Assembly (NCBI GenBank): GCA_030390025.1
Contig: CM059432.1
Coordinates: 76,696,001-76,760,000, forward strand
From: Squalus acanthias
Taxonomy: Eukaryota
DNA length: 64,000 nt
Reading direction: 5' to 3'
The notes under the pieces are model-generated. The model was not told the DNA's origin. It saw nothing but the letters and a program-made list of their open reading frames with translations, and did no database searches. A program made the position numbers and the translations under genes. Positions 1 through 50,520 of this stretch are shown here, piece after piece (positions within the stretch are counted from its first letter, which is position 1; the number at the start of each line of letters is the position of its first letter).

Positions 1-2512
1 AACGCAAAGGTAAGTGAAGGCTTCGGGAGGGTAATCATGGGTCTCGGGGATGATCGGGGGTCTCGGGGATGATCGGGTGTCTCGGGGGTGATCAGGGGTC
101 TCGGGAGTGATCGAGGGTCTCGGGGGTGATCAGGGGTCTCGGGAGTGATCGAGGGTCTCGGGGGTGATCGGGGGTCTCGGGGGTGATCGAGGTTCTCGGG
201 GGTGATCAGGGGTCTCGGGGGTGATCGGGGGTCTCGGGGTGATCGGGGATCTCGGGGATGATCGGGGGTCTCGGGGATGATCGGGGATCTTGGGGATGAT
301 CGGGGGTCTCGGGGTGACCGGGGGTCGCGGGGGTCCCGGGGGGGGGGGGGTGATCACAGGTCTCGGGGGGTGACCGGGGGTCTCGGGGATGATCGCAGGT
401 CTTGGGGGTGGTCATGAGTCTCGGGACGATCACGGGGCTTGAGACAATCGTGAGTCTCGGGGTGATCGGGGGTCTCGGGGTGATCGGGGGTCTCGGGGGT
501 CTCGAGGTGATCGGGGGTCTTGGGGGTGATCGGGGGTCTCGGGGGGTGATCGGGGGTCTCAGGGGGTCACCGGGGCTCTCGGGGTGTCTCGGGGGTCTCG
601 GTGGGGGGGGGTGGGTAATCACAGGTCTTGGGGGGTGCCCGGGGGTGATCGCGGGTCTCAGGGGGACGATCGCGGGTCTCGGGGTGATCGGGGGTCTCGG
701 GGTGATTTGGGGTCTCGGGGGTGATCGGGGGTCTCGGGGTGATCGGGGGTCTTGGGGTGATCGGGGGTCTCGGGGGTGATCGGGGGTCTCGGGGTGATCA
801 GGGTTCTCGGGGGTGATCGGGGGTCTTGGGGGTGATCGGGGGTCTCGGGGGTGATCGAGGATCTCGGGGGTGATCGGGGATCTTGGGGGCCATCAGGGGT
901 CTCGGGGGGTGGTTGGGGGTCTCGGCGGTGATGGGGGTCTCGGGGTGATCGGGGGTCTCGGGGTGATCGGTGGGTCTCGGGGGTCTCGGGGTGATCGGGG
1001 GTCTCGGCAGTGATGGGGGTCTCGGGGTGATCACAGGACTCGGGGTTATCGGGGGTCTCGGGGTGATCGGGGGTCTCGGGGAATGATCGAGGGTCTCGGG
1101 ATTGATCGAGGGTTTCGGGGTTGATTGGGGGTCTCGGGGTGATCGAGGAACTCGAGGTGATCGGGGTTCCCGGGGGGTGATCGGGGCTCTCGGAGGGATC
1201 TGGGGTCTCAGGGGGTGATTGGGGGTCTCGGGGTGATCGGGGGTCTCGGGGGTGATAGGGGGTCTCGGGGGTGATCGGGGGTCTCGGGGGGTGATTGGGG
1301 TGATCGGGGGTCTCAGGGGTGATCGCGGGTCTCGGGGGTCTTGGGTGATTGGGGGTCTCGGGAGTGAACGCGGGTCTCGGTGTGATCGGGGGTCTCGGGG
1401 TGATCGGGGGTCTCGGGGGGTGATTGGGGGTCTCGGGGTGATTGGGGGTCTTGGGGTGATCGGGGGTCTCGGGGTGATTGGGGGTCTCGGGGGTGATCGG
1501 GGGTCTCGGGGTGATCGGGGATCTCGGGGGTGATCGGGGGTCTCGGGGTGATTAAGGGTCTCGGGGGTGATCGGGTGTCTCAGGGTGATCGGGGTTCTCA
1601 AGGTGATCGGGGGTCTCGGGGTGATCGAGGGTTTCAGGGGTGATGGGGGTCTCGGGGGGTGATGGGGGTCTCGGGGTGATCGGGGGTCTCGGGGTGATCG
1701 GGGGTCTCGGCGGTGATGGGGGTCTCGGCGGTGATGGGGTTCTCGGGGTGATGGGGGTCTTGGCGGTGATGGGGCTCTCGGGGTGATCGCAGGTCTCGGG
1801 GTGATCGGGGGTCTCGGGGGGGGCTGTGATCGAGGATCTCGGGGTGATCGGGGGTCTCAGGGGTGATCGGGGGTCTTGGGGGGATCTGGGGTCTCGGGGA
1901 TCGGGGTCTCGGGGTGATCGGGGGTCTCGGGGGTGATCGGGGGTCTCGGGGTGATCGGGGGTCTCGGGGGTGATCGGGGGTCTCGGGGGGTAATCGGGGG
2001 TCTCGGGTGATCGGGGGCTCGGGGTTCTCAGGGTGATCGGGGGTCTCGGGGTGATCTAGGGTCTCGGGGGGTGATCGGGGGTCTCGGGTGTGATCGGGGG
2101 TCTTGGAGTGATTGGGGGTCTCGGGGGTGATCGGGGGTCTCGGGGTGATCGGGGGTCTCGGGGGGTGATCGGGGTCTCGGGGTGATCGGGGGTCTCGGGG
2201 GGTGATCGGGGTCTCGGGGTGATCGAGGGTTTCGGGGTGATCGAGGATCTCGGGGTGATCGGGGGTCTCGGGGGGTGATCGGGGGTCTTGGGGGTGATCA
2301 GGGGTCTCGGGGGTGATCGGGGGTCTCGGGGGTGATCGAGGGTCTCGGGGGTGCTCGGGGGTCTCGGGGGGTGATCGAGGATCTCGGGGTGATCAGGGGT
2401 CTCGGGGTGATCGAGGGTTTCGGGGTGATCGAGGGTCTCGGGGGGTGATCGAGGGTTTCGGGGTGATCGAGGGTCTCGGGGGGTGATCGGGGGTCTCGGG
2501 GTGAACTGGGGT

Positions 2513-2901
2513 CATAGAAACATAGAAGATAGGAGCAGGAGTAGGCCATTCAGCCCCTCGAGCCTGCTCCGCCATTCAATGAGATCATGGCTGATCATCC
2601 AAATTCAGTACCCTGTCCCTGCCTTCTCCCCATATCCCTTGATCCCTTTAGCTTTAAGAAATCTATCTAACTCCTTCTTGAATATATTTAATGAATTGGC
2701 CTCTACTGCCTTCTGTGGTAGAGAATTCCACAGGTTCACCACTCTCTGGGTGAAGAAATTCCTCCTCATCTCAGTCCTAAATGGCTTACCCCTTATCATT
2801 AGACTGTGACCCCTGGGTCTGGACTCCCCCGCCATCGGGAACATCCTTCCTGCATCTAGTCTGTCTAGTCCTGTTAGAATGTTATAAGTTTATAAGTTTC
2901 T
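2513..2901 (-). mobile_element. CR1 LINE 3' fragment, copy 1 of 5 inside the satellite
   Basis: Begins CATAGAAACATAGAA, the reverse complement of the CR1 (TTCTATGT)n tail. Minus ORF 2605-2844 (RGHSLMIRGKPFRTEMRRNFFTQRVVNLWNSLP) is the CR1 ORF2 C-terminus. Confidence 0.95.
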
Positions 2902-5848
2902 TGGGGTGATCGGGGGTCTCGGGTTGATTGGGGGTCTCGGGGGCTAATTGGGGGTCTCGGGGGCTAATTGGGGGTCTCGGGGTGATCGCGGGTCTCGGGG
3001 TAATCAGGGGTTTCGGGGAATGATCAAGGGTCTCGGGGTTGATCGGGGGTCTCGGGGGTGATCGAGGATCTCGGGGTGATCGAGGATCTCGGGGTGATCG
3101 GTGTTCTAGGGGGTAATCGGGGTTCTCGAGGGTTGATCGGGTGTCTCGGGGGGTGATCGGGTGTATCGGGGGGTGATCGGGGGTCTTGGGGTGATCGGGG
3201 GTCAAGGGGGTCTCAGTGGGTGATCGGAGGTCTCGGTGTTCGGGGGTCTCGGGGGTGATCGAGGGTCACGGGGGTCTCGGGGTGATTGGGGGTCTCGGGG
3301 GTCTCAGTGGGTGATCGGAGGTCTCGGGGTGATCGGGGGTCTCGGGGGTGATCGAGAGTCTCGGGGGGTGATCGGGGGTCTCGGGGGTGATCTCGGATCT
3401 CGGGGGTGATCGAGGATCTCGGGGGTGATCGGGGATCTTGGGGGCCATCAGGGGTCTCGGGGGGTGGTCGGGGGTCTCGGCGGTGATGGGGGTCTCGGGG
3501 TGATCGGGGGTCTCGGGGTGATCGGTGGGTCTCGGGGGTCTCGGGGTGATCGGGGGTCTCGGCAGTGATGGGGGTCTCGGGGTGATCGCAGGACTCGGGG
3601 TTATCGGGGGTCTCGGGGTGATCGGGGGTCTCGGGGAATGATCGAGGGTCTCGGGATTGATCGAGGGTTTCGGGGTTGATTGGGGGTCTCGGGGTGATCG
3701 AGGAACTCGAGGTGATCGGGGTTCCCGGGGGGTGATCGGGGCTCTCGGAGGGATCTGGGGTCTCAGGGGGTGATTGGGGGTCTCGGGGTGATCGGGGGTC
3801 TCGGGGGTGATAGGGGGTCTCGGGGGTGATCGGGGGTCTCGGGGGGTGATCGGGGTGATCGGGGGTCTCAGGGGTGATCGCGGGTCTCGGGGGTCTCGGG
3901 GTGATTGGGGGTCTCGGGAGTGAACGCGGGTCTCGGTGTGATCGGGGGTCTCGGGGTGATCGGGGGTCTTGGGGGGTGATTGGGGGTCTCGGGGTGATTG
4001 GGGGTCTTGGGGGTGATCGGGGGTCTCGGGGTGATTGGGGGTCTCGGGGGTGATCGGGGGTCTCGGGGTGATCGGGGATCTCGGGGGTGATCGGGGGTCT
4101 CGGGGTGATTAAGGGTCTCGGGGGTGATCGGGTGTCTCAGGGTGATCGGGGTTCTCAAGGTGATCGGGGGTCTCGGGGTGATCGAGGGTTTCAGGGGGTG
4201 ATGGGGGTCTCGGGGGGTGATGGGGGTCTCGGGGTGATCGGGGGTCTCGGGGTGATCGGGTGTCTCGGCGGTGATGGGAGTCTCGGCGGTGATGGGGTTC
4301 TCGGGGTGATGGGGGTCTTGGCGGTGATGGGGCTCTCGGGGTGATCGCAGGTCTCGGGGTGATCGGGGGTCTCGGGGGGGCTGTGATCGAGGATCTCGGG
4401 GTGATCGGGGGTCTCAGGGGTGATCGGGGGTCTTGGGGGGATCTGGGGTCTCGGGGTGATCGGGGGTCTCGGGGTGATCGGGGGTCTCGGGGGTGATCGG
4501 GGGTCTCGGGGGGTAATCGGGGGTCTCGGGTGATCGGGGGCTCGGGGTTCTCGGGGTGATCGGGGGTCTCGGGGTGATCTAGGGTCTCGGGGGGTGATCG
4601 GGGGTCTCGGGTGTGATCGGGGGTCTTGGGGTGATTGGGGGTCTCGGGGGTGATCGGGGGTCTCGGGGTGATCGGGGGTCTCGGGGGGTGATCGGGGTCT
4701 CGGGGTGATCGGGGGTCTCGGGGGGTGATCGGGGTCTCGGGGGTCTCGGGGTGATTGGGGGTCTCGGGAGTGAACGCGGGTCTCGGTGTGATCGGGGGTC
4801 TCGGGGTGATCGGGGGTCTCGGGGGGTGATTGGGGGTCTCGGGGTGATTGGGGGTCTTGGGGGTGATCGGGGGTCTCGGGGTGATTGGGGGTCTCGGGGG
4901 TGATCGGGGGTCTCGGGGTGATCGGGGATCTCGGGGGTGATCGGGGGTCTCGGGGTGATTAAGGGTCTCGGGGGTGATCGGGTGTCTCAGGGTGATCGGG
5001 GTTCTCAAGGTGATCGGGGGTCTCGGGGTGATCGAGGGTTTCAGGGGGTGATGGGGGTCTCGGGGGGTGATGGGGGTCTCGGGGTGATCGGGGGTCTCGG
5101 GGTGATCGGGGGTCTCGGCGGTGATGGGGGTCTCGGCGGTGATGGGGTTCTCGGGGTGATGGGGGTCTTGGCGGTGATGGGGCTCTCGGGGTGATCGCAG
5201 GTCTCGGGGTGATCGGGGGTCTCGGGGGGGGCTGTGATCGAGGATCTCGGGGTGATCGGGGGTCTCAGGGGTGATCGGGGGTCTTGGGGGGATCTGGGGT
5301 CTCGGGGTGATCGGGGGTCTCGGGGTGATCGGGGGTCTCGGGGGTGATCGGGGGTCTCGGGGGGTAATCGGGGGTCTCGGGTGATCGGGGCTCGGGGTTC
5401 TCAGGGTGATCGGGGGTCTCGGGGTGATCTAGGGTCTCGGGGGGTGATCGGGGGTCTCGGGTGTGATCGGGGGTCTTGGGGTGATTGGGGGTCTCGGGGG
5501 TGATCGGGGGTCTCGGGGTGATCGGGGGTCTCGGGGGGTGATCGGGGTCTCGGGGTGATCGGGGGTCTCGGGGGGTGATCGGGGTCTCGGGGTGATCGAG
5601 GGTTTCGGGGTGATCGAGGATCTCGGGGTGATCGGGGGTCTCGGGGGGTGATCGGGGGTCTTGGGGGTGATCAGGGGTCTCGGGGGTGATCGGGGGTCTC
5701 GGGGGTGATCGAGGGTCTCGGGGGTGCTCGGGGGTCTCGGGGGGTGATCGAGGATCTCGGGGTGATCAGGGGTCTCGGGGGTGATCGAGGGTTTCGGGGT
5801 GATCGAGGGTCTCGGGGGGTGATCGGGGGTCTCGGGGTGAACTGGGGT

Positions 5849-6237
5849 CATAGAAACATAGAAGATAGGAGCAGGAGTAGGCCATTCAGCCCCTCGAGCC
5901 TGCTCCGCCATTCAATGAGATCATGGCTGATCATCCAAATTCAGTACCCTGTCCCTGCCTTCTCCCCATATCCCTTGATCCCTTTAGCTTTAAGAAATCT
6001 ATCTAACTCCTTCTTGAATATATTTAATGAATTGGCCTCTACTGCCTTCTGTGGTAGAGAATTCCACAGGTTCACCACTCTCTGGGTGAAGAAATTCCTC
6101 CTCATCTCAGTCCTAAATGGCTTACCCCTTATCATTAGACTGTGACCCCTGGGTCTGGACTCCCCCGCCATCGGGAACATCCTTCCTGCATCTAGTCTGT
6201 CTAGTCCTGTTAGAATGTTATAAGTTTATAAGTTTCT
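5849..6237 (-). mobile_element. CR1 LINE 3' fragment, copy 2
   Basis: Same sequence and junctions as copy 1; ORF 5941-6180 is identical. Confidence 0.95.
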
Positions 6238-8622
6238 TGGGGTGATCGGGGGTCTCGGGTTGATTGGGGGTCTCGGGGGCTAATTGGGGGTCTCGGGGGC
6301 TAATTGGGGGTCTCGGGGGCTAATTGGGGGTCTCGGGGTGATCGCGGGTCTCGGGGTAATCAGGGGTTTCGGGGAATGATCAAGGGTCTCGGGGTTGATC
6401 GGGGGTCTCGGGGGGTGATCGAGGATCTCGGGGTGATCGAGGATCTCGGGGTGATCGGTGTTCTAGGGGGTAATCGGGGTTCTCGAGGGTTGATCGGGTG
6501 TCTCGGGGGGTGATCGGGTGTATCGGGGGGTGATCGGGGGTCTTGGGGTGATCGGGGGTCAAGGGGGTCTCAGTGGGTGATCGGAGGTCTCGGTGTTCGG
6601 GGGTCTCGGGGGTGATCGAGGGTCACGGGGGTCTCGGGGTGATTGGGGGTCTCGGGGGTCTCAGTGGGTGATCGGAGGTCTCGAGGTGATCGGGGGTCTT
6701 GGGGGTGATCGGGGGTCTCGGGGGGTGATCGGGGGTCTCAGGGGGTCACCGGGGCTCTCGGGGTGTCTCGGGGGTCTCGGTGGGGGGGGGTGGGTAATCA
6801 CAGGTCTTGGGGGGTGCCCGGGGGTGATCGCGGGTCTCAGGGGGACGATCGCGGGTCTCGGGGTGATCGGGTGTCTCGGGGTGATTTGGGGTCTCGGGGG
6901 TGATCGGGGGTCTCGGGGTGATCGGGGGTCTTGGGGTGATCGGGGGTCTCGGGGGTGATCGGGGGTCTCGGGGTGATCAGGGTTCTCGGGGGTGATCGGG
7001 GGTCTTGGGGGTGATCGGGGGTCTCGGGGGTGATCGAGGATCTCGGGGGTGATCGGGGATCTTGGGGGCCATCAGGGGTCTCGGGGGGTGGTTGGGGGTC
7101 TCGGCGGTGATGGGGGTCTCGGGGTGATCGGGGGTCTCGGGGTGATCGGTGGGTCTCGGGGGTCTCGGGGTGATCGGGGGTCTCGGCAGTGATGGGGGTC
7201 TCGGGGTGATCACAGGACTCGGGGTTATCGGGGGTCTCGGGGTGATCGGGGGTCTCGGGGAATGATCGAGGGTCTCGGGATTGATCGAGGGTTTCGGGGT
7301 TGATTGGGGGTCTCGGGGTGATCGAGGAACTCGAGGTGATCGGGGTTCCCGGGGGGTGATCGGGGCTCTCGGAGGGATCTGGGGTCTCAGGGGGTGATTG
7401 GGGGTCTCGGGGTGATCGGGGGTCTCGGGGGTGATAGGGGGTCTCGGGGGTGATCGGGGGTCTCGGGGGGTGATCGGGGTGATCGGGGGTCTCAGGGGTG
7501 ATCGCGGGTCTCGGGGGTCTCGGGGTGATTGGGGGTCTCGGGAGTGAACGCGGGTCTCGGTGTGATCGGGGGTCTCGGGGTGATCGGGGGTCTCGGGGGG
7601 TGATTGGGGGTCTCGGGGTGATTGGGGGTCTTGGGGGTGATCGGGGGTCTCGGGGTGATTGGGGGTCTCGGGGGTGATCGGGGGTCTCGGGGTGATCGGG
7701 GATCTCGGGGGTGATCGGGGGTCTCGGGGTGATTAAGGGTCTCGGGGGTGATCGGGTGTCTCAGGGTGATCGGGGTTCTCAAGGTGATCGGGGGTCTCGG
7801 GGTGATCGAGGGTTTCAGGGGGTGATGGGGGTCTCGGGGGGTGATGGGGGTCTCGGGGTGATCGGGGGTCTCGGGGTGATCGGGGGTCTCGGCGGTGATG
7901 GGGGTCTCGGCGGTGATGGGGTTCTCGGGTGATGGGGGTCTTGGCGGTGATGGGGCTCTCGGGGTGATCGCAGGTCTCGGGGTGATCGGGGGTCTCGGGG
8001 GGGGCTGTGATCGAGGATCTCGGGGTGATCGGGGGTCTCAGGGGTGATCGGGGGTCTTGGGGGGATCTGGGGTCTCGGGGTGATCGGGGGTCTCGGGGTG
8101 ATCGGGGGTCTCGGGGGTGATCGGGGGTCTCGGGGGGTAATCGGGGGTCTCGGGTGATCGGGGGCTCGGGGTTCTCAGGGTGATCGGGGGTCTCGGGGTG
8201 ATCTAGGGTCTCGGGGGGTGATCGGGGGTCTCGGGTGTGATCGGGGGTCTTGGGGTGATTGGGGGTCTCGGGGGTGATCGGGGGTCTCGGGGTGATCGGG
8301 GGTCTCGGGGGGTGATCGGGGTCTCGGGGTGATCGGGGGTCTCGGGGGGTGATCGGGGTCTCGGGGTGATCGAGGGTTTCGGGGTGATCGAGGATCTCGG
8401 GGTGATCGGGGGTCTCGGGGGGTGATCGGGGGTCTTGGGGGTGATCAGGGGTCTCGGGGGTGATCGGGGGTCTCGGGGGTGATCGAGGGTCTCGGGGGTG
8501 CTCGGGGGTCTCGGGGGGTGATCGAGGATCTCGGGGTGATCAGGGGTCTCGGGGGTGATCGAGGGTTTCGGGGTGATCGAGGGTCTCGGGGGGTGATCGG
8601 GGGTCTCGGGGTGAACTGGGGT

Positions 8623-9011
8623 CATAGAAACATAGAAGATAGGAGCAGGAGTAGGCCATTCAGCCCCTCGAGCCTGCTCCGCCATTCAATGAGATCATGG
8701 CTGATCATCCAAATTCAGTACCCTGTCCCTGCCTTCTCCCCATATCCCTTGATCCCTTTAGCTTTAAGAAATCTATCTAACTCCTTCTTGAATATATTTA
8801 ATGAATTGGCCTCTACTGCCTTCTGTGGTAGAGAATTCCACAGGTTCACCACTCTCTGGGTGAAGAAATTCCTCCTCATCTCAGTCCTAAATGGCTTACC
8901 CCTTATCATTAGACTGTGACCCCTGGGTCTGGACTCCCCCGCCATCGGGAACATCCTTCCTGCATCTAGTCTGTCTAGTCCTGTTAGAATGTTATAAGTT
9001 TATAAGTTTCT
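8623..9011 (-). mobile_element. CR1 LINE 3' fragment, copy 3
   Basis: Same sequence and junctions as copy 1; ORF 8715-8954 is identical. Confidence 0.95.
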
Positions 9012-11511
9012 TGGGGTGATCGGGGGTCTCGGGTTGATTGGGGGTCTCGGGGGCTAATTGGGGGTCTCGGGGGCTAATTGGGGGTCTCGGGGGCTAATTG
9101 GGGGTCTCGGGGTGATCGCGGGTCTCGGGGTAATCAGGGGTTTCGGGGAATGATCAAGGGTCTCGGGGTTGATCGGGGGTCTCGGGGGGTGATCGAGGAT
9201 CTCGGGGTGATCGAGGATCTCGGGGTGATCGGTGTTCTAGGGGGTAATCGGGGTTCTCGAGGGTTGATCGGGTGTCTCGGGGGGTGATCGGGTGTATCGG
9301 GGGGTGATCGGGGGTCTTGGGGTGATCGGGGGTCAAGGGGGTCTCAGTGGGTGATCGGAGGTCTCGGTGTTCGGGGGTCTCGGGGGTGATCGAGGGTCAC
9401 GGGGGTCTCGGGGTGATTGGGGGTCTCGGGGGTCTCAGTGGGTGATCGGGGGTCTCGGGGGTGATCGAGAGTCTCGGGGGGTGATCGGGGGTCTCGGGGG
9501 TGATCGCGGATCTCGGGGGTGATCGAGGATCTCGGGGGTGATCGGGGATCTTGGGGGCCATCAGGGGTCTCGGGGGGTGGTCGGGGGTCTCGGCGGTGAT
9601 GGGGGTCTCGGGGTGATCGGGGGTCTCGGGGTGATCGGTGGGTCTCGGGGGTCTCGGGGTGATCGGGGGTCTCGGCAGTGATGGGTGTCTCGGGGTGATC
9701 GCAGGACTCGGGGTTATCGGGGGTCTCGGGGTGATCGGGGGTCTCGGGGAATGATCGAGGGTCTCGGGATTGATCGAGGGTTTCGGGGTTGATTGGGGGT
9801 CTCGGGGTGATCGAGGAACTCGAGGTGATCGGGGTTCCCGGGGGGTGATCGGGGCTCTCGGAGGGATCTGGGGTCTCAGGGGGTGATTGGGGGTCTCGGG
9901 GTGATCGGGGGTCTCGGGGGTGATAGGGGGTCTCGGGGGTGATCGGGGGTCTCGGGGGGTGATCGGGGTGATCGGGGGTCTCAGGGGTGATCGCGGGTCT
10001 CGGGGGTCTCGGGGTGATTGGGGGTCTCGGGAGTGAACGCGGGTCTCGGTGTGATCGGGGGTCTCGGGGTGATCGGGGGTCTTGGGGGGTGATTGGGGGT
10101 CTCGGGGTGATTGGGGGTCTTGGGGGTGATCGGGGGTCTCGGGGTGATTGGGGGTCTCGGGGGTGATCGGGGGTCTCGGGGTGATCGGGGATCTCGGGGG
10201 TGATCGGGGGTCTCGGGGTGATTAAGGGTCTCGGGGGTGATCGGGTGTCTCAGGGTGATCGGGGTTCTCAAGGTGATCGGGGGTCTCGGGGTGATCGAGG
10301 GTTTCAGGGGGTGATGGGGGTCTCGGGGGGTGATGGGGGTCTCGGGGTGATCGGGGGTCTCGGGGTGATCGGGGGTCTCGGCGGTGATGGGGGTCTCGGC
10401 GGTGATGGGGTTCTCGGGGTGATGGGGGTCTTGGCGGTGATGGGGCTCTCGGGGTGATCGCAGGTCTCGGGGTGATCGGGGGTCTCGGGGGGGGCTGTGA
10501 TCGAGGATCTCGGGGTGATCGGGGGTCTCAGGGGTGATCGGGGGTCTTGGGGGGATCTGGGGTCTCGGGGTGATCGGGGGTCTCGGGGTGATCGGGGGTC
10601 TCGGGGGTGATCGGGGGTCTCGGGGGGTAATCGGGGGTCTCGGGTGATCGGGGGCTCGGGGTTCTCGGGGTGATCGGGGGTCTCGGGGTGATCTAGGGTC
10701 TCGGGGGGTGATCGGGGGTCTCGGGTGTGATCGGGGGTCTTGGGGTGATTGGGGGTCTCGGGGGTGATCGGGGGTCTCGGGGTGATCGGGGGTCTCGGGG
10801 GGTGATCGGGGTCTCGGGGTGATGGGGGTCTCGGGGGGTGATGGGGCTCTCGGGGTGATCGCAGGTCTCGGGGTGATCGGGGGTCTCGGGGGGGGCTGTG
10901 ATCGAGGATCTCGGGTGATCGGGGGTCTCAGGGGTGATCGGGGGTCTTGGGGGGATCTGGGGTCTCGGGGTGATCGGGGGTCTCGGGGTGATCGGGGGTC
11001 TCGGGGGTGATCGGGGTCTCGGGGGGTAATCGGGGGTCTCGGGTGATCGGGGGCTCGGGGTTCTCGGGGTGATCGGGGGTCTCGGGGTGATCTAGGGTCT
11101 CGGGGGGTGATCGGGGGTCTCGGGTGTGATCGGGGGTCTTGGGGTGATTGGGGGTCTCGGGGGTGATCGGGGGTCTCGGGGTGATCGGGGGTCTCGGGGG
11201 GTGATCGGGGTCTCGGGGTGATCGGGGGTCTCGGGGGGTGATCGGGGTCTCGGGGTGATCGAGGGTTTCGGGGTGATCGAGGATCTCGGGGTGATCGGGG
11301 GTCTCGGGGGGTGATCGGGGGTCTTGGGGGTGATCAGGGGTCTCGGGGGTGATCGGGGGTCTCGGGGGTGATCGAGGGTCTCGGGGGTGCTCGGGGGTCT
11401 CGGGGGGTGATCGAGGATCTCGGGGTGATCAGGGGTCTCGGGGGTGATCGAGGGTTTCGGGGTGATCGAGGGTCTCGGGGGGTGATCGGGGGTCTCGGGG
11501 TGAACTGGGGT

Positions 11512-11900
11512 CATAGAAACATAGAAGATAGGAGCAGGAGTAGGCCATTCAGCCCCTCGAGCCTGCTCCGCCATTCAATGAGATCATGGCTGATCATCCA
11601 AATTCAGTACCCTGTCCCTGCCTTCTCCCCATATCCCTTGATCCCTTTAGCTTTAAGAAATCTATCTAACTCCTTCTTGAATATATTTAATGAATTGGCC
11701 TCTACTGCCTTCTGTGGTAGAGAATTCCACAGGTTCACCACTCTCTGGGTGAAGAAATTCCTCCTCATCTCTGTCCTAAATGGCTTACCCCTTATCATTA
11801 GACTGTGACCCCTGGGTCTGGACTCCCCCGCCATCGGGAACATCCTTCCTGCATCTAGTCTGTCTAGTCCTGTTAGAATGTTATAAGTTTATAAGTTTCT
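11512..11900 (-). mobile_element. CR1 LINE 3' fragment, copy 4
   Basis: Same junctions as copy 1. One substitution seen (CATCTCTGTCC vs CATCTCAGTCC). Confidence 0.95.
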
Positions 11901-12870
11901 TGGGGTGATCGGGGGTCTCGGGTTGATTGGGGGTCTCGGGGGCTAATTGGGGGTCTCGGGGGCTAATTGGGGGTCTCGGGGTGATCGCGGGTCTCGGGGT
12001 AATCAGGGGTTTCAGGGAATGATCAAGGGTCTCGGGGTTGATCGGGGGTCTCGGGGGGTGATCGAGGATCTCGGGGTGATCGAGGATCTCGGGGTGATCG
12101 GTGTTCTAGGGGGTAATCGGGGTTCTCGAGGGTTGATCGGGTGTCTCGGGGGGTGATCGGGTGTATCGGGGGGTGATCGGGGGTCTTGGGGTGATCGGGG
12201 GTCAAGGGGGTCTCAGTGGGTGATCGGAGGTCTCGGTGTTCGGGGGTCTCGGGGGTGATCGAGGGTCACGGGGGTCTCGGGGTGATTGGGGGTCTCGGGG
12301 GTCTCAGTGGGTGATCGGAGGTCTCGAGGTGATCGGGGGTCTCGGGGGTGATCGAGAGTCTCGGGGGGTGATCGGGGGTCTCGGCGGTGATGGGGGTCTC
12401 GGGGTGATCGGAGTTCTCAGGGTGATCGGGGTTCTGAAGGTGATCGGGGGTCTCGGGGTGATCGGGGGTCTCGGGAATGATCGGGTGTCTCGGGGGTGAT
12501 CGGGGATCTCAGGGTGATGATCGGGTGTCTCAGGGGTGATCAGGGGTCTTGGGGATGATCGAGGTTCTCGGGGGGTGATCGGGGGTCTCGGGGGTGATCG
12601 AGGGTCTCGGGGTGATCGGGGGTCTCGGGGGTGATCGGGGGTCTCGGGGTGATCGGGGGTCTGGGGAATGATCGGGGGTCGCGGGGTGATCGGGGGTCTG
12701 GGGAATGATCGGGGGTCTCGGGGGGTGATCGGGGATCTCGGGGGATGATTGGGGGTCTCGGGGGGTGATCGGGGTTCTCGGGGGGCGATCAAGGGTCTTG
12801 GGGTGATCGAGGGTCTCGGGGTGATCGAGGGTCTCGGGGGGTGATCGGGGGTCTCGGGGTGAACGGGGGT

Positions 12871-13256
12871 CATAGAAACATAGAAGATAGGAGCAGGAGT
12901 AGGCCATTCAGCCCCTCGAGCCTGCTCCGCCATTCAATGAGATCATGGCTGATCATCCAAATTCAGTACCCTGTCCCTGCCTTCTCCCCATATCCCTTGA
13001 TCCCTTTAGCTTCAAGAAATATATCTAACTCCTTCTTGAATATATTTAATGAATTGGCCTCTACTGCCTTCTGTGGTAGAGAATTCCACAGGTGCACCAC
13101 TCTTTGGGTGAAGAAATTCCTCCTCATCTCAGTTCTAAATGGCTTACCCCTTATCCTTAGACTGTGACCTCTGGTTCTGGACTCCCCGGCCATCGGGAAC
13201 ATCCTTCCTGCATCTAGTCTGTCTAGTCCTGTTAGAATGTTATAAGTTAAGTTTCT
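12871..13256 (-). mobile_element. CR1 LINE 3' fragment, copy 5 (diverged)
   Basis: Same insertion point and truncation as copies 1-4, but about 9 substitutions and a 3-nt indel at the right junction (counted by eye). Confidence 0.95.
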
Positions 13257-30480: not shown

Positions 30481-30710
30481 GACTATGAGCCTGTAAATTT
30501 CCACTTAAATACTGAGGCTGATTTTGTAATTCTAATTAGTGATAACTCAATTAGTATAAAGTTGTTTTTATATATTGCCTCCATGATGTGTTTTAGTGCT
30601 TTTGTCATTATATTGTTCTCCCATAATGTTGTTCATGAACTACAGTAAAATTAAAAGTTGCAAATCGCTTCATATAACTGCCTCTGTTTCCCTCCCTCTC
30701 TAATTCATTC

Positions 30711-30910
30711 NNNNNNNNNNNNNNNNNNNNNNNNNNNNNNNNNNNNNNNNNNNNNNNNNNNNNNNNNNNNNNNNNNNNNNNNNNNNNNNNNNNNNNNNNN
30801 NNNNNNNNNNNNNNNNNNNNNNNNNNNNNNNNNNNNNNNNNNNNNNNNNNNNNNNNNNNNNNNNNNNNNNNNNNNNNNNNNNNNNNNNNNNNNNNNNNNN
30901 NNNNNNNNNN
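30711..30910. other. Assembly gap (200 N)
   Basis: Run of N. Confidence 1.
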
Positions 30911-39900: not shown

Positions 39901-42900
39901 GGGGTCTCGGGGGGATCGGCGGTCTCGGTGGTCTCGGGGTTATCGGGGGTGTCAGGGGGTGATCGAGGGTCTCGTGGGTGATCGGGGTTCTCGGGCTGAT
40001 CGGGCGTCTCGTGGGTGATTGGGATTCTCGGGGTGATCAGGGGTCTCGGGGGTTGATCGGCGGTCTCGGGGATGATCGGGGGTCTCGGGGTGATCGGGGA
40101 TAATCGGGGGTCTCGGGGGTAATCGGGGTCTCGGGGTGATCGCGGGTCTTGGGGTGATCGGGGGTCTCAGGGGTGATTGATGGTCTCGGGGTGATCGGCG
40201 GTCTCGGGGGTGATCGGGGGTCTCGGGGTGATCGGGGATAATTGGGGGTCTCGGGGGTAATCGGGTTCTCGGGGTGATCGGGGGTCTCAGGGGTGATTGA
40301 GGGTCTCGGGGTGATCGGGGGTCTCGGGGTGATCAGGGTTTCAAGGGTGATCGGGGGATCTCGGGGTGATCGGGGGTCTCGTGGGGAGATCGCGGGTCTC
40401 GGGGTGATCGGGGGTTCTCGGGGTGATCAGGATTTCAAGGGTGATCGGGGGTCTCGGGGTGATCGGGGGTCTCGTGGGGAGATCGCGGGTCTCGGGGTGA
40501 TCGGGGGGTCTCAGCGTGATCGGGGATCTCGGGGGTTGATCGAGGGCCTCGGGGGTGATTGGAGTTCTCTGGGGGTGATCGAGGGTCTCAGGGGGTTGAT
40601 CGGGGGTGTCAGGGTGATCGGGGTGATCGGGGGTCTTGGGGGTGATCGGGGGTCTCGGGGGTCTCAGGGTGATCGGGGATCTCGGGGGTGATCTGGGTTA
40701 TCGGGGGTAATCGGTGGTCTCAGGGTGATCGGGGGACTCGGGGGGTGATCGAGTGTCTCGGGAGGGTGATCGGGGGTCTTGGGGGGTGATCGGGGGTCTC
40801 GGCGGTGATCGGAGGTCTCGGGGGGGTGATCGGGTGTCTCGGGGTGATCTGGGGTCTCGGAGGGTGATCGGGGGTCTCAGGGGGATCGGCGGTCTCGTGG
40901 GTGATCGGGGGTCTCGGGGGTGATCGGGGGTCTCGTGGTTATCGGGGTCTCGTGGGTGATCAGGGGTCTCAGGCTGATCGGGGGTCTCGGGGGTGATCGG
41001 GGGTCTCGGGGTGGTCAGGCATCTCGGGGGGTGATTGGCGGTCTCGGGGTGATCAGGGGGTGATCGGGGGTCTCGGGGGTGATCGGGGGTCTCGGGGTGA
41101 TCGGGGGTCTCGGGGTGATCGTGGTCTCGGGGTGATCGGGGGTCTCGGGGGTGATTGGGGGTCTCGGGGTGATCGGGGGTCTTGGGGTGATCGGGGGTCT
41201 CAGGGTGATCAGGGTTTCGAGGGTGATCGGGGGTCTCGGGGTGCTCGGGGTTTCGAGGGTGATCGGGGTCTCGGGGTGATCGGGGGTCTCGGGGGGGAGA
41301 TCGCGGGTCTCGGGGTGATCGGGGGTCTCGGGGTTGATCGAGGGTCTCAGAGGTTGATCGAGGGTATCGGGGTTGATCGAATGTCGCAGGGGTGCTCGTT
41401 ATCTCAGGGGTGATCGGGGGTCTCGGGGGGTGATTGGGGGTCTCAGGGGTGATCGGGAACTCGGGGGGTGATCGGGGGTCTCGGGGTGATCGGAGGTCTC
41501 AGGGGTGATCGGGGGTCTCGGGGGGTGATCGGGGGTCTCAGGGGTGATCTAGGGTCTCGGGGGGTGATCGGGGGTCTCGGGGTGATCGGAGGTCTCAAGG
41601 GTGATAGGGGGTCTCGGGGGGTGATCGGGGGTCTCAGGGGTGATCGGGGGTCTCGGGGGGTGATCGGGGGTCTCAGGGGTGATCGGGGGTCTCGGGGGGT
41701 GATTGGGGGTCTCGGGGTGATCGGGGGTCTCGGGGGGTGATCGGGGTTCTCGGGGTGATCGGAGGTCTCGGGGGGTGATCGGGGCTCTCGGGGTGATCGG
41801 GGGTCTCGGGGGGTGATCGGGGTCTCAGGGTGATCGGGAGTCTCGGGGGTGATTGGGGGTCTCGGGGTGATCGGGGGTCTCGGGGGGTGATCGGGGGTCT
41901 CGGGGGTGATCGAGGGTCTCGGGGTGATCTGGGGTCTCGGGGGGTGATCGGGGGTCTTGATGGGTGATCGGGGATCTCGGGCTGATCGGGCGCCTCGGTG
42001 ATCGGGGGTCTCGGGGAGATCGGGGGTCTCAGGGGGTGATCGGGGGTCTCGGGGGGTGATCGAGGGACTCATGGGTGATCGGGGATCTCGGGCTGATCGG
42101 GGGTCTCGGGGGGTGATCGTGGGTCTCAGGGAGATCGGGGGTCTCGGGGGGTGATCGAGGGTCTCGGGGACATCGGGGGTCTCGGGGGGTGATCGAGGGT
42201 CTCGGGGGTGATTGAGGTTCTCGGGGTGATCGGGTGTCTCGGGGGTTGATTGAAGGTCTCAGGGGTGATCGAGGGTCTCGGGGGGGGTGATTGGGGGTCT
42301 TGGGGAGATCGAGGGTCTCGGGGGTGATCGGGGGTCTTGGGGGGGGTGATTGGGGGTCTCGGGGTTGATCAAGGGTCTCGGGGGTGCTCGGCGGTCTCGG
42401 GGTGATCGGGGGTCTCGGGGTGATCGGGAGTCACGGGGTGATCGAGGGTCTCGGGGGTAATCGGGGGTCTCGGGGTGATCGGGGGTCTCGGGGTAATCGG
42501 GGTCTCGGGGGTTGATCGAGGGTCTCAGGGGTGATCGGGGGTCTCGGGGGTGATCGTTATCTCAGGGGTGACCGGGGGTCTCGGGCGGTGATCAGCGGTC
42601 TCGGGGTGATCGGGTGTCTCGGGGGGTGATCGGGGGTCTCGGGGGGTGATCGGGGATCTCGGGGGTGATCGGGGGTCTCGGGGGGTGATCGGGGGTCTCG
42701 GGGGGTGATCTCGGATCTCGGGGGGTGATCAGCGGTCTCGGGGGGTGATCGGGGATCTCGGGGGTCTCGGGGGGTGTTCAGGGGTCTCTGGGGTGATCGG
42801 GGATCTCGGGGGTGATCAGGGGTCTCGGGGGGTGATCAGGGGTCTCGAGGGTGATCGAGGGTCTCGGGGGTTGATCGAGGGTCTCGGGGGGGTGATCAAG

Positions 42901-45900
42901 GGTCTCGGGGGCGATCGGGGGTCTTGGGGGTGTGATTGGGGGTCTCGGGGTGATTGGGGGACTCGGGGGGTGATCGGGGATCTCGGGGGGTTTATCGGGT
43001 GTCTCGGGGGGTGGTCGAGGGTCTCAGGGTTTGATCGAGGGTCTCGGGGGGGTGATTGGGGGTCTCGGGGTGATCGGGGGACTCACAGGGGTGATCGGGG
43101 TCTCGGGGGGGTGATCGGGGGTCTCGGGGGGTTATCGAGGGTCTCAGGGGTTGATCGAGGGTATCGGGTTGATCAAATGTCGCAGGGGTGATCGTTATCT
43201 CAGGTGTGATCGGGGGTCTCGGGGTGATCAGGTGTCTCGGGGGGTGATCAGGGGTCTCGGGGTGATCGGTGGTCTCAGGGGGTGATCGGGGGTCTCGGGG
43301 TGATCGGGGGTCTCGGGGGGGTGATCGGGCGTCTCGGGTGATCGGGGGTCTCGGGGGTGATCGGTGGTCTCGGGTGATTGGGGTTCTCGGGGAGATCGGA
43401 GGTCTCAGGGGGTGATCAGTGGTCGGGGGGGATCTGGGGTCTCGTAGGGTGATCGGGGGTCTCGGGGGGTGATCGGGGGTCTCAGGGAGATCGGGGGTCT
43501 CGGACTGATCGGGCGTCTCGGGCTGATTGGGGGTCTCGGGGGGTGATCGTGGGTCTCAGGGAGATCGGGGGTCTCGGGGGGTGATCGAGGGTCTCGGGGG
43601 GTTATCGAGGGTCTCGGGGGTGATTGAGGGTTTCGGGAGGGTGATCGGGGGTCTCGGGCAGATCGGGGGTCTCGGGGTGATCGGGGGTCTCGGGGGTGAT
43701 CAAGGGTCTATGGGGTGATCGAGGGTCTCGGGGTTGATCGAATGTCGCAGGGGTGATCGTTATCTCAGGGGTGATCGGGGGTCTCGCGCGGTGATCAGCG
43801 GTTTCTGGGTGATCGGGGGTCTCGGGGGGTGATCGGGGGTCTCGGGGTGATCGAGTGTCTCGGGGGGTGATCAGGGGTCTCGGTGTGATCGGGGGTCTCG
43901 GGGTGATCGGGTGTCTCCGGGTGATCGGGGGTCTCGGGTGTAATCGGGGGTCTAGGGGGTTGATCGAGGGTCTCGGGGGTTGATCGAGGGTCTCGGGGAA
44001 TGATCGAGGGTCTCTGAGGTGATCGGGGGTCTCGGGAGTGATCGAGGGTCTCGGGGGCCATCGGGAGTCTCGGGGTGATCGAGGGTCTCAGGGGCCATCA
44101 GGGGTCTCGGGCGGTGATCAGTGGTCTCGGGGGGTGATGGGGAGTCTCTGGGGTGATCGGGGGTCTCGGGCGGTGAACAGCGGTCTTGAGGGGTGATCGG
44201 GGGTCTCTGGGGTGATTGGGGTCTCGGGGGGTGATCGGGGGTCTCGGGGGGTGATCGGGGGTCTCGGGGGGTGATCAGGGGTCTCTGGGGTGATCGGGGA
44301 TCTCGGGGTGATCGCCGGTCTCGGGGGGTGATCGGGGATCTCGGGGGGTGATCGGGGATCTCGGGCTGATCGGGGGTCTCGGGGGGTGATCAGGCGTCTC
44401 GGGTGATTGGGGGTCTCGGGGTTTTCTGGGGTCTCCTAGGGTGATCGGGGGTCTCGGGGGGTGATCGGGCGTCTCGGGTGATCGGGGGTCTCGGGGGTGA
44501 TCGGTGGTCTCGGGTGATTGGGGTTCTCGGGGAGATCGGAGGTCTCAGGGGGTGATCAGTGGTCGGGGGGGATCTGGGGTCTCGTAGGGTGATCGGGGGT
44601 CTCGGGGGGTGATCGGGGGTCTCAGGGAGATCGGGGGTCTCGGACTGATCGGGCGTCTCGGGCTGATTGGGGGTCTCGGGGGGTGATCGTGGGTCTCAGG
44701 GAGATCGGGGGTCTCGGGGGGTGATCGAGGGTCTCGGGGGGTTATCGAGGGTCTCGGGGGTGATTGAGGGTTTCGGGAGGGTGATCGGGGGTCTCGGGCA
44801 GATCGGGGGTCTCGGGGTGATCGGGGGTCTCGGGGGTGATCAAGGGTCTCAGGGGTGATCGAGGGTCTCGGGGTTGATCGAATGTCGCAGGGGTGATCGT
44901 TATCTCAGGGGTGATCGGGGGTCTCGCGCGGTGATCAGCGGTTTCTGGGTGATCGGGGGTCTCGGGGGGTGATCGGGGGTCTCGGGGTGATTGAGTGTCT
45001 CGGGGGGTGATCAGGGGTCTCGGTGTGATCGGGGGTCTCGGGGTGATCGGGTGTCTCCGGGTGATCGGGGGTCTCGGGTGTAATCGGGGGTCTAGGGGGT
45101 TGATCGAGGGTCTCGGGGGTTGATCGAGGGTCTCGGGGAATGATCGAGGGTCTCTGAGGTGATCGGGGGTCTCGGGAGTGATCGAGGGTCTCGGGGGCCA
45201 TCGGGAGTCTCGGGGTGATCGAGGGTCTCAGGGGCCATCAGGGGTCTCGGGCGGTGATCAGTGGTCTCGGGGGGTGATGGGGAGTCTCTGGGGTGATCGG
45301 GGGTCTCGGGCGGTGAACAGCGGTCTTGAGGGGTGATCGGGGGTCTCTGGGGTGATTGGGGGTCTCGGGGGGTGATCGGGGGTCTCGGGGGGTGATCGGG
45401 GGTCTCGGGGGGTGATCAGGGGTCTCTGGGGTGATCGGGGATCTCGGGGTGATCGCCGGTCTCGGGGGGTGATCGGGGATCTCGGGGGGTGATCGGGGAT
45501 CTCGGGCTGATCGGGGGTCTCGGGGGGTGATCAGGCGTCTCGGGTGATTGGGGGTCTCGGGGTTTTCTGGGGTCTCCTAGGGTGATCGGGGGTCTCGGGG
45601 AGATCGGAGGTCTCAGGGGGTGATCGGGGGTCTCAGGGGTGATCGAGGGTCTCGGGGAGATCGGAGGTCTCAGGGAGTGATCGGGGGTCTCGGGGGTGAT
45701 CGGGGGTCTCGGGGGTGATCGGATGTCTCGGGTAATCGGGGGTCTCGGGGAGATCGGAGGTCTCAGGGGGTGATCGGGGGTCTCGGGGGTGATCGGGGGT
45801 CTCGGGGGGTGATCGGGCGTCTCGGGTGATCGGGGGTCTCGGGGTGATCAGGGGTCTCGGGGGGTGATCGAGGTTCTCGGGGAGATCGGGGGGTGATCGA

Positions 45901-48900
45901 GGGTCTCGTGGGTGATCGGGGGTCTCGGGGGGTGATCAGGGGTCTCGGGGTGATCGGTGGTCTCGGGGGGTGATCAGGGGTCTCGGGGGGTGATCGAGGG
46001 TCTCGGGAGGTTGATCGGGGGTCTCGGGGTGATCGGTGGTCTCGGGGGGTGATCATGGGTCTCGGGGAGATCGGGGGGTGATCGAGGGTCTCGTGGGTGA
46101 TCGGGGGTCTCGGGGGGTGATCAGGGGTCTCGGGGTGATCGGTGGTCTCGGGGGGTGATCAGGGGTCTCGGGGGGTGATCGAGGGTCTCGGGAGGTTGAT
46201 CGGGGGTCTCGGGCAGATCGGGGGTCTTGGGGTGATCGAGGGTCTCGGGGGTGATCGAGGGTCTCGTGGGTGATCGGGGGTCTCGGGGGGTGATCAGGGG
46301 TCTCGGGGTGATCGGGGGTCTCGGGGGGTGATAAGGGGTCTCGGGGTGATCGGGGGTCTCGGGGTGATCGCGGGTCTCAAGGGTGAGCGAGGGTGTCGGG
46401 TTGATTGGGGGTCTTGGGGTGATCGGGGTTTCAAGGGTGATCAGGTGTCTCGGGGTGATCGGGTGTCTCGGGGGTTGATCGAGGGTCTCGGGGGTTGATC
46501 GAGGGTCTCGGGGAGTGATCGAGGGTCTCGGGGAGATCGGGTGTCTCGGGGGGTGATCGAGGGTCTCGGGGGTGATTGGGGGTCTCGGGGTGATCGGGGG
46601 TCTCGGGGGATGATCGGGGGTCTCGGGGGGTTCGGCGGTCTCGGGGGTCTTGGGGTGATCGAGGGTCTCGGGTGTGATCGAGGGTCTCATGGGTGATCGG
46701 GGGTCTCGGGGGGTGATCGGGGGTCTCGGGGTGATCGGGGGTCTCGGGGGGTGATCAGGGGTCTCGGGGTGATCGGGGGTCTCGGGGGGTGATCAGGGGT
46801 CTCGGGGTGATCGGGGGTCTCGCGGTGATCGCGGGTCTCAAGTGTGATCGGGGGTCTCGGGGTGATTGTGGGTCTCGGGGGTTGATCGAGGGTCTCGGGG
46901 GTGATCGAGGGTATCGGGGGGTGATCGAGGTTCTCAGGGAGATCGGGGGTCTTGGGGAGTGATCGAGGGTCTCGGGGGCTATCGGGGGTCTCGGGGTGAT
47001 CAGGGGTCTCGGGGTGATCGAGGGTCTCGGGTGCCATCGGGGGTCTCGGGGTGATCGGGGGTCTCGGGGCGATCGGGGTGATCGGGGTGATCGGGGATCT
47101 CGGGGGGTGATCAGGGGTCTCTGGGGTGATCGGGGGTCTCGGGGGGTAATCGGGGGTCTCGGGGGTGATCGGGGGTCTCGGGGGGTAATCGGGGGTCTCG
47201 GGGGTGATCGGGGATCTCGGGGTGATCGGGGGTCTCGGGGGGTGATCAGGGGTCTCTGGGGTGATCGGGGGTCTCGGGGGGTGATCGGGGATCTCGGGGG
47301 GTGATCGAGGGTCTCGGGGTGATCGGGGATCTCGGGGTGATCGGGGGTCTCGGGGTGATCGAGGGTCTCATGGGTGATCGGGGGTCTCGGGGGGTGATCG
47401 GGGGTCTCGGGGTGATCGGGGGTCTCGGGGGGTGATCAGGGGTCTCGGGGTGATCGGGGGTCTCGGGGGGTGATCAGGGGTCTCGGGGTGATCGGGGGTC
47501 TCGCGGTGATCGCGGGTCTCAAGTGTGATCGGGGGTCTCGGGGTGATTGTGGGTCTCGGGGGTTGATCGAGGGTCTCGGGGGTGATCGAGGGTATCGGGG
47601 GGTGATCGAGGTTCTCAGGGAGATCGGGGGTCTCGGGGAGTGATCGAGGGTCTCGGGGGCTATCGGGGGTCTCGGGGTGATCAGGGGTCTCGGGGTGATC
47701 GAGGGTCTCGGGTGCCATCGGGGATCTCGGGGTGATCGGGGGTCTCGGGGCGATCGGGGTGATCGGGGTGATCGGGGATCTCGGGGGGTGATCAGGGGTC
47801 TCTGGGGTGATCGGGGGTCTCGGGGGGTAATCGGGGGTCTCGGGGGTGATCGGGGGTCTCGGGGGGTAATCGGGGGTCTCGGGGGTGATCGGGGATCTCG
47901 GGGTGATCGGGGATCTCGGGGGGTGATCAGGGGTCTCTGGGGTGATCGGGGGTCTCGGGGGGTGATCGGGGATCTCGGGGGGTGATCGAGGGTCTCGGGG
48001 TGATCGGGGATCTCGGGGTGATCGGGGGTCTCGGGGTGATCGGGGGTCTCGGGGTGATCGAGGGTCTCGGGGTGATCGGGGATCTCGGGGGGTGATCGGG
48101 GGTCTCGGGGGTGATCGAGGGTCTCGGGGTGATCGGGGGTCTCGGGGGGTGATCGGGGATCTCGGGGGGTGATCGGGGGTCTCGGGGGTGATCGAGGGTC
48201 TCGGGGTGATCGGGGATCTCGGGGTGATCGGGGGTCTCGGGGTGATCGAGGGTCTCGGGGTGATCGGGGATCTCGGGGGGTGATCGGGGATCTCGGGCTG
48301 ATCGGGGGTCTCGGGGGGTGATTGGGCGTCACGGGTGATCGGGGGTCTCGGGGTGATCGGGGGTCTCGGGGTGATCGGGGGTCTTGGGGGTGATCGGGGG
48401 TCTCGGGGGTGATCGGATGTCTCGGGTGATCGGGGGTCTCGGGGAGATCGGAGGTCTCAGGGGGTGATCGGGGGTCTCGGGGTTTTCTGGGGTCTCGTAG
48501 GGTGATCGGGGGTCTCGGGGAGATCGGAGGTCTCATGGGTGATCGGGCGTCTCGGGCTGATCGGAGGTCTCAGGGGGTGATCGGGGGTCTCGGGGTTTTC
48601 TGGGGTCTCGTAGGGTGATCGGGGGTCTCGGGGAGATCGGAGGTCTCATGGGTGATCGGGCGTCTCAGGCTGATCGGGGGTCTCGGGGGGTGATCGAGGG
48701 TCTCAGGGAGATCGGGGGTCTCGGGGGGTGATCGAGGGTCTCGGGGGTGATTGGGGGTCTCGGGGTGATCGGGGGACTCAGGGGATGATCGAGGGTCTCG
48801 GGGTGATCGGGGGTCTCGGGGGATGATCGGGGGTCTCGGGGGGTTCGGCGGTCTCGGGGGTCTTGGGGTGATCGAGGGTCTCGGGGATGATCGGGGGTCT

Positions 48901-49898
48901 CGGGGGTGATCGGGGGTCTCAGGTTATTGGGGGTCTCGGGGTGATCGGGGGTCTCAGGGGGTGATCGGGGGTCTTGTGGTGATCGGGGGTCTCAGGGTTG
49001 ATCATGGGTCTCAGGGAGATTGGGAGTCTCGGGGGTGATTGGGCGTCTCAGGGTGATCGGGGAACTCGGGGGGGTGATCGAGGGTCTCGGGGGGGGTGAT
49101 CGGGGGTCTCGGGGTGATCGAGGGTCTCGGGGTGATCGCGGGTCTCGGTGTGATCGGGGGTCTCGGGGTGATTGGGGGCCTCCGTGTGATCGGGGGTCTC
49201 GGGGGTGATCGGGGGTCTCGGGGGTGATCGGGGGTCTCGGGGTGATCGCGGGTCTCGGTGTGATCGGGGGTCTCGGGGTGATCGGGGGCCTCCGTGTGAT
49301 CGGGGGTCTCGGGGGTGATCGGGGGTCTCGGGGGTGATCGGGGGTCTCGGGGTGATCGCGGGTCTCGGGTTGATTGGGGGTCTCGGGGTGATCGGGGGTC
49401 TCGGGGGGTGATCAGGGGTCTCGGGGTGATCGGGGGTCTCGGGGGTGATCAGGGGTCTCGGTGTGATCGTGGGTCTCGGGGGTGATCGGGGGTCTCGGGG
49501 GTGATCGGGGATCTCGGGGGGGTGATCGAGGGTCTCGGGGTGATCGGGGGTCTCGGGGGGGTGATCAGGGGTCTCGGGGTGATCAGGGGTCTCGGGGGGT
49601 GATCAGGGGTCTCGGGGTGATCGGGGATCTCGGGGTGATCGTGTGTCTCGGGGTGATCGGGGGTCTCGGGGGGTGATCGGGGGTCTCGGGGGGGGTGTGA
49701 TCGCGGTTCTCGGGGGATGATCGCGGGTCTCGGGGTGATCGGGGGTCTCAGGGTGATCGCGGTTCTCGGGGGATGATCGGGGGTCTCAGGGTGATTGGGG
49801 GTCTCAGGGTGATTGGGGGTCTCAGGGTGATCGGGGGTCTCAGGGTGATCGGGGGGTCTCAGGGTGATTGGGGGTCTCAGGGTGATCGCGGGTCTCGG
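30911..49898 (+). repeat. G-rich satellite array, right part; same monomer and orientation
   Basis: The repeat resumes after the 200-N gap. The last clear monomer is ...GGTGATCGCGGGTCTCGG at ~49898. Confidence 0.98.
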
Positions 49899-50341
49899 AC
49901 GGAGCGATCAGTGGTGCTGGGCAGTAACATCAGCGGGCAGTGGCCCACGGTTTCGGCCCTGGTGGTCAGCTCTTGTGACGTTGGTTTCAGGGGGTCTTGG
50001 GAGATCAGAGGTCAGGGATCTCAGGGCCCAGGGTACGGTGGGGGGAGAGATTGGAGGTTGTGGTCTAGGCCTGGCGGTCAGGTGTTGAGGATCTTTGGGC
50101 CGGGCAAACCAATGTTGCAGCGGGGACCTAAAGCAGGTGTTATGCTCGCTATTTGCATATTCAAAGGACCTTATGCCTGCTTCAGGCATGGGTAATGGAT
50201 TTCTCTTGTTTGTCCTTACCCAATACGCCGGGCAGCACACATCCAGTCGGAAGTGCGCACACGCTTCCTGCCTGCCATTTTAGACTTAGGAGGCTGCGTA
50301 GCGCCTGAAAAATGGGCGCTATGGGACCCAATTTCTAGGCC
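49899..50341. mobile_element. Right arm of a Harbinger-type MITE adjoining the satellite; TIR AATTTCTAGGCC at 50330-50341
   Basis: Its end TAGCGCCTGAAAAATGGGCGCTATGGGACCCAATTTCTAGGCC parallels the end of the complete MITE at 61956 (ATCGCCCCAAACGGGGCGCTACGGAATTTCTAGCCC): a similar subterminal hairpin and an 11/12 TIR match. No left TIR lies in the window. Confidence 0.75.
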
Positions 50342-50520
50342 ACCTCTTCTTCTGAAAATTATCCAGGTCAAGTTTGAGGTGAAGGTGAGGATTGCCAGGG
50401 TCTCCAAGCCATAGTCATAGCCTGGAAAGCCTTAGAATTGCCTGTGGCACATTTTTTTGATTGGCCCTTTGTCTTTAGTAATACAATTGGCTTAACACTC
50501 CTATTCTTGTAAAACCTCTC

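Follow-up and report, generated by a model that had tools for sequence, protein, structure and literature searches.

The 64,000-nucleotide stretch of Squalus acanthias DNA analysed here (assembly GCA_030390025.1, contig CM059432.1, forward-strand positions 76,696,001 to 76,760,000; hereafter the window) contains a long G-rich tandem array, which stops 200 bp inside of the terminal 240 bp of an element that has terminal inverted repeats (TIRs) and is present in many copies. The best explanation of this arrangement is that the array grew in place inside one immobile, Harbinger-like non-autonomous transposon copy, a reading to which we assign a probability of roughly 0.55. The array and its margins comprise the following features, in window coordinates.

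[quoted passage not shown]
39..29271, plus strand: G-rich array, left part, commonest monomers TGATCGGGGGTCTCGGGG(G)(G), from Tandem Repeats Finder (TRF) and monomer parsing
29272..30910, no strand: two N gaps (29272-29771, 500 bp; 30711-30910, 200 bp) around a 939-bp island (29772-30710) with a reverse-transcriptase fragment of a long interspersed nuclear element (LINE)
30911..49898, plus strand: G-rich array, right part, from TRF and monomer parsing
49899..50101, plus strand: linker, near single copy, with weak monomer-like pieces, an acceptor-like TTTCAG/G (49990) and, at 50041, a word resembling a TIR
50102..50341, plus strand: right arm, from a non-coding TIR family with many copies; its end carries a TAGCGCC/GGCGCTA hairpin and AATTTCTAGGCC
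50342..50344, plus strand: predicted right copy of a 3-bp target-site duplication (TSD), ACC, from sequence only

The array and the transposon arm at its right edge

TRF analysis of the window identified one tandem array (39-49898, period 18, 2645 copies), confirming the long array reported by an earlier, sequence-only reading of this DNA. After parsing, the monomers were mostly 18-20 bp long, and the unit is given here as 18-19 bp; monomers are built from two 9-bp halves, GGGGTGATC and GGGGGTCTC, and vary by G-run length. The GC skew of the array is about +0.5, and G-quadruplex (G4) motifs (G3+ N1-7, on one strand) occupy 71% of it, compared with 0% of 50342-64000. Repeated 30-mers make up a share of 0.46 and 0.25 at the left margin and 0.21 at the right, against a median of 0.90, and a share of 0.3 or less was found in 8 of 191 windows. 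Because both margins are poorly homogenised relative to the interior, the array seems to have a genuine edge at position ~39. The dimer pattern of the monomer had no match in metagenome, viral and prokaryote contigs, as one would expect of a repeat from an animal. On the minus strand of the array (39-49898), where the monomer is C-rich, stop codons are few, which leaves long open frames rich in Pro, Arg and Asp that could mislead gene finders into calling proteins.

Contigs of four of 24 public sequencing runs were aligned to 49850-50640 (791 bases) at 80% likeness. Runs X1 and X5 come from one organism and either is possibly the source of the assembly, so they were not counted as independent; runs X22 and X9 come from other organisms. 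The contig results are those of the 15 loose-end rows listed out of 466, 15 joints out of 21 and 19 pieces out of 1871. The segment 50102-50341 was covered by many diverged contigs, with contigs showing another letter at single positions (106 in X1, 92 in X5). A pile of loose contig ends, numbering 61 in X1 and 36 and 43 in X5, was found at 50341-50342, with an agreement of 0.40-0.43. Such a cluster of loose ends with unrelated letters is the signature of a transposon end, and AATTTCTAGGCC is therefore a real element end; a sharp end of an interspersed multi-copy family at 50341 was confirmed. One X5 contig runs across the 50341 junction without any difference, and one X1 contig (49857-50127) joins the array to the arm, the outer flank being not array-like. 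In X1, contigs of the locus (49857-50542) have a depth of ~3.6 and many paralogous contigs ~7, which may reflect one haplotype only or coverage noise. The unique flank had no contig cover in X22 and X9, which says nothing on an empty site.

The sequence-only reading had suggested the whole flank 49899-50341 as a query for other genomic copies. In the public contigs, multi-copy similarity extends over 50102-50341 and not over the rest of this flank, and the linker has no multi-copy left end (depth in X1 of 3.6-4.4 at 50039-50092 and 626-4487 at 50093-50335). In each run, at least two contigs join the arm at 50102 to a monomer-like stretch of 21 nt that ends at 50028, a short and weak joint.

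The sequence-only reading had also placed the hairpin and TIR at the end of this flank close to the ends of two neighbouring MITEs, 61189-61956 and 54960-55701. The last 45 nt before 50341 matched the right end of the former better than any of 2000 shuffles (0/2000 as good), whereas the match to the latter was at TIR level only (p 0.085 and 0.017). Compared with the full 443-bp flank (49899-50341), neither MITE rose above shuffles. Both were rejected as members of the arm's family, the similarity being confined to the terminal 45 bp or less and the interiors of the three elements being unrelated. The use of MITE 54960-55701 as a model, in which a motif of the array head lies ~195 bp inside the left TIR, thus failed to carry over, because that MITE and the arm are not of the same family. 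The TAGCGCC/GGCGCTA stem was not the optimum in DNA folding of the arm end, so that the hairpin is given by complementarity alone.

The element is called Harbinger-like because its end is shared with MITE 61189-61956 and because that neighbour has a 3-bp TSD. The flanks of this neighbour do read TGA/TGA, as the description of it as TSD-verified implied; those of MITE 54960-55701 read AAT/ATT, matching at two of three positions. Paired TIRs of 14-25 bp are described for PIF/Harbinger elements (PMC2213677, as seen in part). The TIR of the arm reads GGCCTAGAAATT and lacks the motif G(N)5GTT, a mining filter for plant TIRs in the same source that may not apply to vertebrates. MITEs are given as ~100-800 bp in the part of PMC12054243 consulted; if the array lies inside the arm element, this copy measures at least 36 kb and is at most a MITE-derived relic.

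No coding capacity was seen in the arm, two frames of which had no Pfam family or homologue. Searches with the arm frame (49908-50279) yielded 0 of 6 candidates and no match among 1.84 billion representative proteins; homologues numbered 0 of 122 for the left-junction frame and 0 of 8000 for the right-junction frame, protein blanks that are uninformative on DNA copies. The DNA motif of the arm had no match in metagenome contigs, as expected for an animal repeat. An autonomous partner with the same ends would be expected to code for a DDE transposase and a Myb-like protein; a link to a transposase was not found among 10 nearby frames, none of which had a Pfam match.

Growth in place and the size of the array

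Two features within the array bear on how it grew and how long it is.

2518..13257, minus strand: LINE 3' fragment in five copies of 382-385 bp, starting at 2518, 5854, 8628, 11517 and 12876
16953..29021, plus strand: array segment recurring collinearly past the gaps at 30954-41280, from chained exact matches and block comparison

The LINE fragment shows 39% protein identity to the C-terminus of a LINE open reading frame (ORF) at 50482-52626. Three of its five copies are identical, one has 1 substitution and one has 9 substitutions and a 3-bp gap, and all five have the same junctions with the array, indicating that one LINE insertion was copied four times as part of array blocks. The fragment was amplified along with the array in blocks of 1.4-3.3 kb, and many further exact duplications of 0.3-1.3 kb were found within the array. 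These observations are direct evidence that the array lengthened in place, recently, by block duplications of ~0.4-9 kb after the LINE fragment had landed. The insert is a usable internal clock, which together with the nested duplications would time the growth of such arrays if the left end is confirmed.

The island between the two gaps is non-satellite, has no monomers even at its ends, and carries the LINE reverse-transcriptase fragment on the minus strand (RVT_1, E 1.2e-13); it may be misplaced in the assembly. A collinear chain links 16953-29021 with 30954-41280; exact matches account for 8439 bp of it, and block indels reach 1.5 kb. In six blocks picked from this chain, 16 substitutions were counted at 7351 sites (0.22%), so that ~10 kb per side are 99.8% identical. 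Because this ~10-kb variant pattern is common to both gap sides, collinear and nearly identical, both sides belong to one array. The caveat of the sequence-only reading, that two gaps part the ends of the array, is thereby largely lifted.

The same near-copies weaken its size estimate of ~50 kb. They are either two haplotypes joined with overlapping contig ends, in which case the array measures ~35.9 kb, or a young large duplication at which the assembly broke, in which case it measures at least 50 kb; divergence does not separate the two, being 0.22% across the gaps and 0-0.26% among five within-contig duplicates. The array is real and its size is 36-50 kb, the larger figure possibly exceeding the true one by as much as 14 kb. 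Overlapping contig ends can therefore make arrays that span assembly gaps in this genome look longer than they are.

Origin of the array

The placement of the array inside a MITE, as proposed by the sequence-only reading, is supported on the right, where a real TIR end has the array on its inner side and no convincing partner end falls between the two. The retention of both arms that it proposed is borne out for the right arm, and no short-array member of the family was seen among the contigs listed. On the left, the perfect donor word at 7-15 lies 24 bp from the array edge and was seen in 41 of 20000 shuffles of the 38-bp head. The window has five other perfect donor words: three in MITE 54960-55701, one at 56182 in a possible decayed element, and one at 57344 outside any recognised MITE. 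A fair reading of head 1-38 is that it may be a MITE arm, and a second, left element end is plausible but unproven.

The head had been compared with MITE 54960-55701 through a 13/15 match of bases 1-15 to 55153-55167. The match is present and close to chance, being reached in 9 of 300 shuffles for the two MITEs and in 105 of 300 for the 14-kb flank. An exact 13-mer of the head at 56171-56183 (minus strand, E 0.016) is the better match. It falls in a possible decayed TIR element at 55867-56360 (minus strand), whose donor word has 13 exact bases in common with the array head. A second match of the head to MITE 54960-55701, in opposite orientation, was rejected (score 23 versus a shuffle maximum of 22, E 2.3), since it fits no model.

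If the array grew inside the element, a non-autonomous copy would have inserted first, before array growth. A G-run in its variable centre (the GGGGTGATC and GGGGGTCTC halves), right behind a left-over splice-donor word, would have been the seed and would have lengthened through slippage; the long array would then have expanded via unequal exchange or gene conversion, probably aided by G4 fork stalling, leaving a swollen copy that would be immobile and functionless. A left TIR with an ACC target duplication is predicted at most ~1 kb upstream of position 1; it would start with a sequence resembling GG(C/G)CTAGAAATT or GGGGGAGAAATT, with ACC before it. Family members with arms like 50102-50341 would be expected to carry the AAAGGTAAGTGAAG word on the other arm.

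Several observations weigh against growth inside the element. The left TIR and TSD are not within the window, in which 38 bases of head lie left of the array. With a p of 0.03-0.35, the 13/15 match carries little weight and consists mostly of a splice-donor word, and a host exon would end in a perfect donor too. On the right, 49904-50092 is near single copy, and at least 38 X1 contigs depart at 50102 with non-monomer letters (agreement 0.56), which together suggest that the main subfamilies have another interior than this copy. No short-array relative or other monomer-bearing family copy was found among the contig pieces listed for X1 and X5; as contigs break at repeats and the pieces listed are 19 of 1871, this does not establish that such relatives are absent. 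The degenerate monomer-like pieces that had been noted in the flank (~49990-50025) are present and weak, since three clusters arose in 17 of 600 shuffles and the local score in 114 of 1000; the monomer likeness of the linker is borderline, with an identity of 0.57-0.58 against a background of 0.50 +/- 0.03 (maximum 0.585, 87 windows). Finally, ACC is not A/T-rich, and the majority letters after other copies start with A or T among the loose ends listed; nor does ACC fit the target consensus of zebrafish Harbinger3_DR, centred on CWG in the part of the source consulted.

The near-single-copy linker and the paralogous contigs departing at 50102 without monomers also agree with an unlikely, though serious, alternative: a G-rich minisatellite of independent origin, which perhaps opens a host intron, next to a truncated MITE (50102-50341) whose left part was deleted or overrun, the donor at 7-15 coming from a host exon or another element. 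TIR-like ends are dense locally (5 at element ends in 14 kb), and the donor at 57344 lies outside any recognised MITE. Such an origin requires, however, that part of the MITE was deleted or overrun and that a donor arose by chance 24 bp from the opposite array edge, and it sits poorly with the orientation of the arm towards the array and with the location of three of the five other donors inside a MITE.

A bolder version of the element's history, which we consider distinctly improbable, is that a vestigial intron in a Harbinger leader expanded enormously to become the array, between the donor at 7-15 and the acceptor at 49990, in an element that keeps its two TIRs and its TSD and has grown at least 50-fold from sub-kb size. 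The acceptor-like word at 49990 was rejected as evidence, as 11 such words occur in 13.7 kb. If this were true, a G4 repeat would be spliced out of read-through transcripts, and the locus would record the birth of a satellite with a date and clear bounds, an empty site or a short allele serving as control.

It is still less likely that the left and right ends stem from different elements or loci, brought together either through a scaffolding error or because two arrays of the same repeat recombined. The two gaps, which enclose an unrelated LINE island, leave room for this, as does the left contig, which begins its 9.4-kb block anew at 29070. The proportion of 40-mers in common with the right contig, however, is 62-92% for 19-29 kb and 1-12% for 0-14 kb, and the 0.22% divergence and collinear order are expected of one locus unless recent block copies exist elsewhere.

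The least likely arrangement, a complete 301-bp MITE at 50041-50341 merely 140 bp from the array, draws on GGGGGAGAGATTGG at 50041, which matches the right TIR at 10 of 14 positions (97 of 2000 shuffles reach this; the match also counts against the array lying inside the element), agrees at 13 of 14 positions with a family end listed in the contigs, resembles the left TIR at 61189 and forms a post hoc pattern found in 17 of 3000 shuffles, but it is disfavoured by the lack of a TSD (GTG or GGT versus ACC), by a single-copy 50039-50092 beside a multi-copy last 60 bp, by paralogous contigs that continue with other sequence for a median of 255 letters past 50102, and by the resemblance of the word at 50041 to a decayed monomer.

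Neighbouring elements and known systems

One further feature lies to the right of the arm.

50482..52626: LINE ORF2 remnant, 714 codons, open (RVT_1, E 7.8e-35)

This LINE, which we take to be a CR1 element, extends to 52715, where it ends in a TTCTATGT octamer tail; its family has very high depth and also occurs in the runs of other organisms. Frames at 52700-54100 resemble by eye what are presumably decayed Harbinger transposase and Myb-like pieces; the frames tested had no Pfam match. MITE 54960-55701, with its three perfect splice-donor words, has several internal hairpins, and its AAT/ATT flanks are inverted, not direct. A 64-nt inverted repeat at 60272-60438 (89% complementary, 39-nt loop) has the look of a small foldback element.

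No publication on this array or on any shark Harbinger-borne satellite was found in a search that covered few subscription papers and repeat databases. The words 'Harbinger', 'MITE' and 'satellite' were absent from the main text of a shark genome preprint, whose supplements may hold repeat libraries.

The growth of repeats inside non-autonomous DNA transposons is an already known route (miDNA4, Tetris, DTC84, MtPH-A6-4; likewise Xmix/Xstir, according to the parts of reviews consulted), and the array would extend this route in scale without a new mechanism. If the left end is confirmed, it would be an unusually large, cleanly bounded vertebrate case of a satellite-sized array born in a Harbinger-type element. 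The comparisons below draw on the parts of the sources that were seen.

In Xenopus tropicalis, miDNA4 is a Tc1/mariner MITE that contains a satellite (Scalvenzi and Pollet 2014, via PMC12628747, PMC9659126 and PMC12054243). It resembles the present case in being a non-autonomous TIR element with a tandem repeat inside, for which growth into satellite arrays during decay of the ends has been proposed, and differs in its superfamily, in its element size of 300-600 bp and in a family-wide monomer (61% with one copy), whereas here one 36-50-kb array and no family-wide monomer were seen. Tetris/TIR-220 of Drosophila virilis (PMC4079207) likewise provides large arrays born in a DNA transposon, some with both terminal domains on fibre-FISH, for which unequal crossing-over was invoked. 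It is, however, a foldback element with an AT-rich 220-bp unit in its TIRs and at most 66 copies in the assembly; here the unit is a G-rich 18-19-mer that occurs ~1900-2600 times and lies in the centre.

The PIF/Harbinger subfamily MtPH-A6-4 of Medicago truncatula (PMC2213677) shares the superfamily and has variable tandem repeats between its TIRs; these lie subterminally, consist of a 60-bp unit repeated 2-35 times and occur in 18 of the 23 members, and the TSD is the plant TTA/TAA. DTC84 of Donax trunculus (PMC3879986) is similar in that its arms form a cassette around central core repeats, and differs in having at most 5 core repeats and an AA TSD. Finally, the human minisatellite CEB1 (PMC2673046) is G-rich and strand-biased, as is the present array, and its instability is tied to G4 structures; that link was tested in yeast with loss of Pif1, whereas here the G4 potential is that of the sequence motif.

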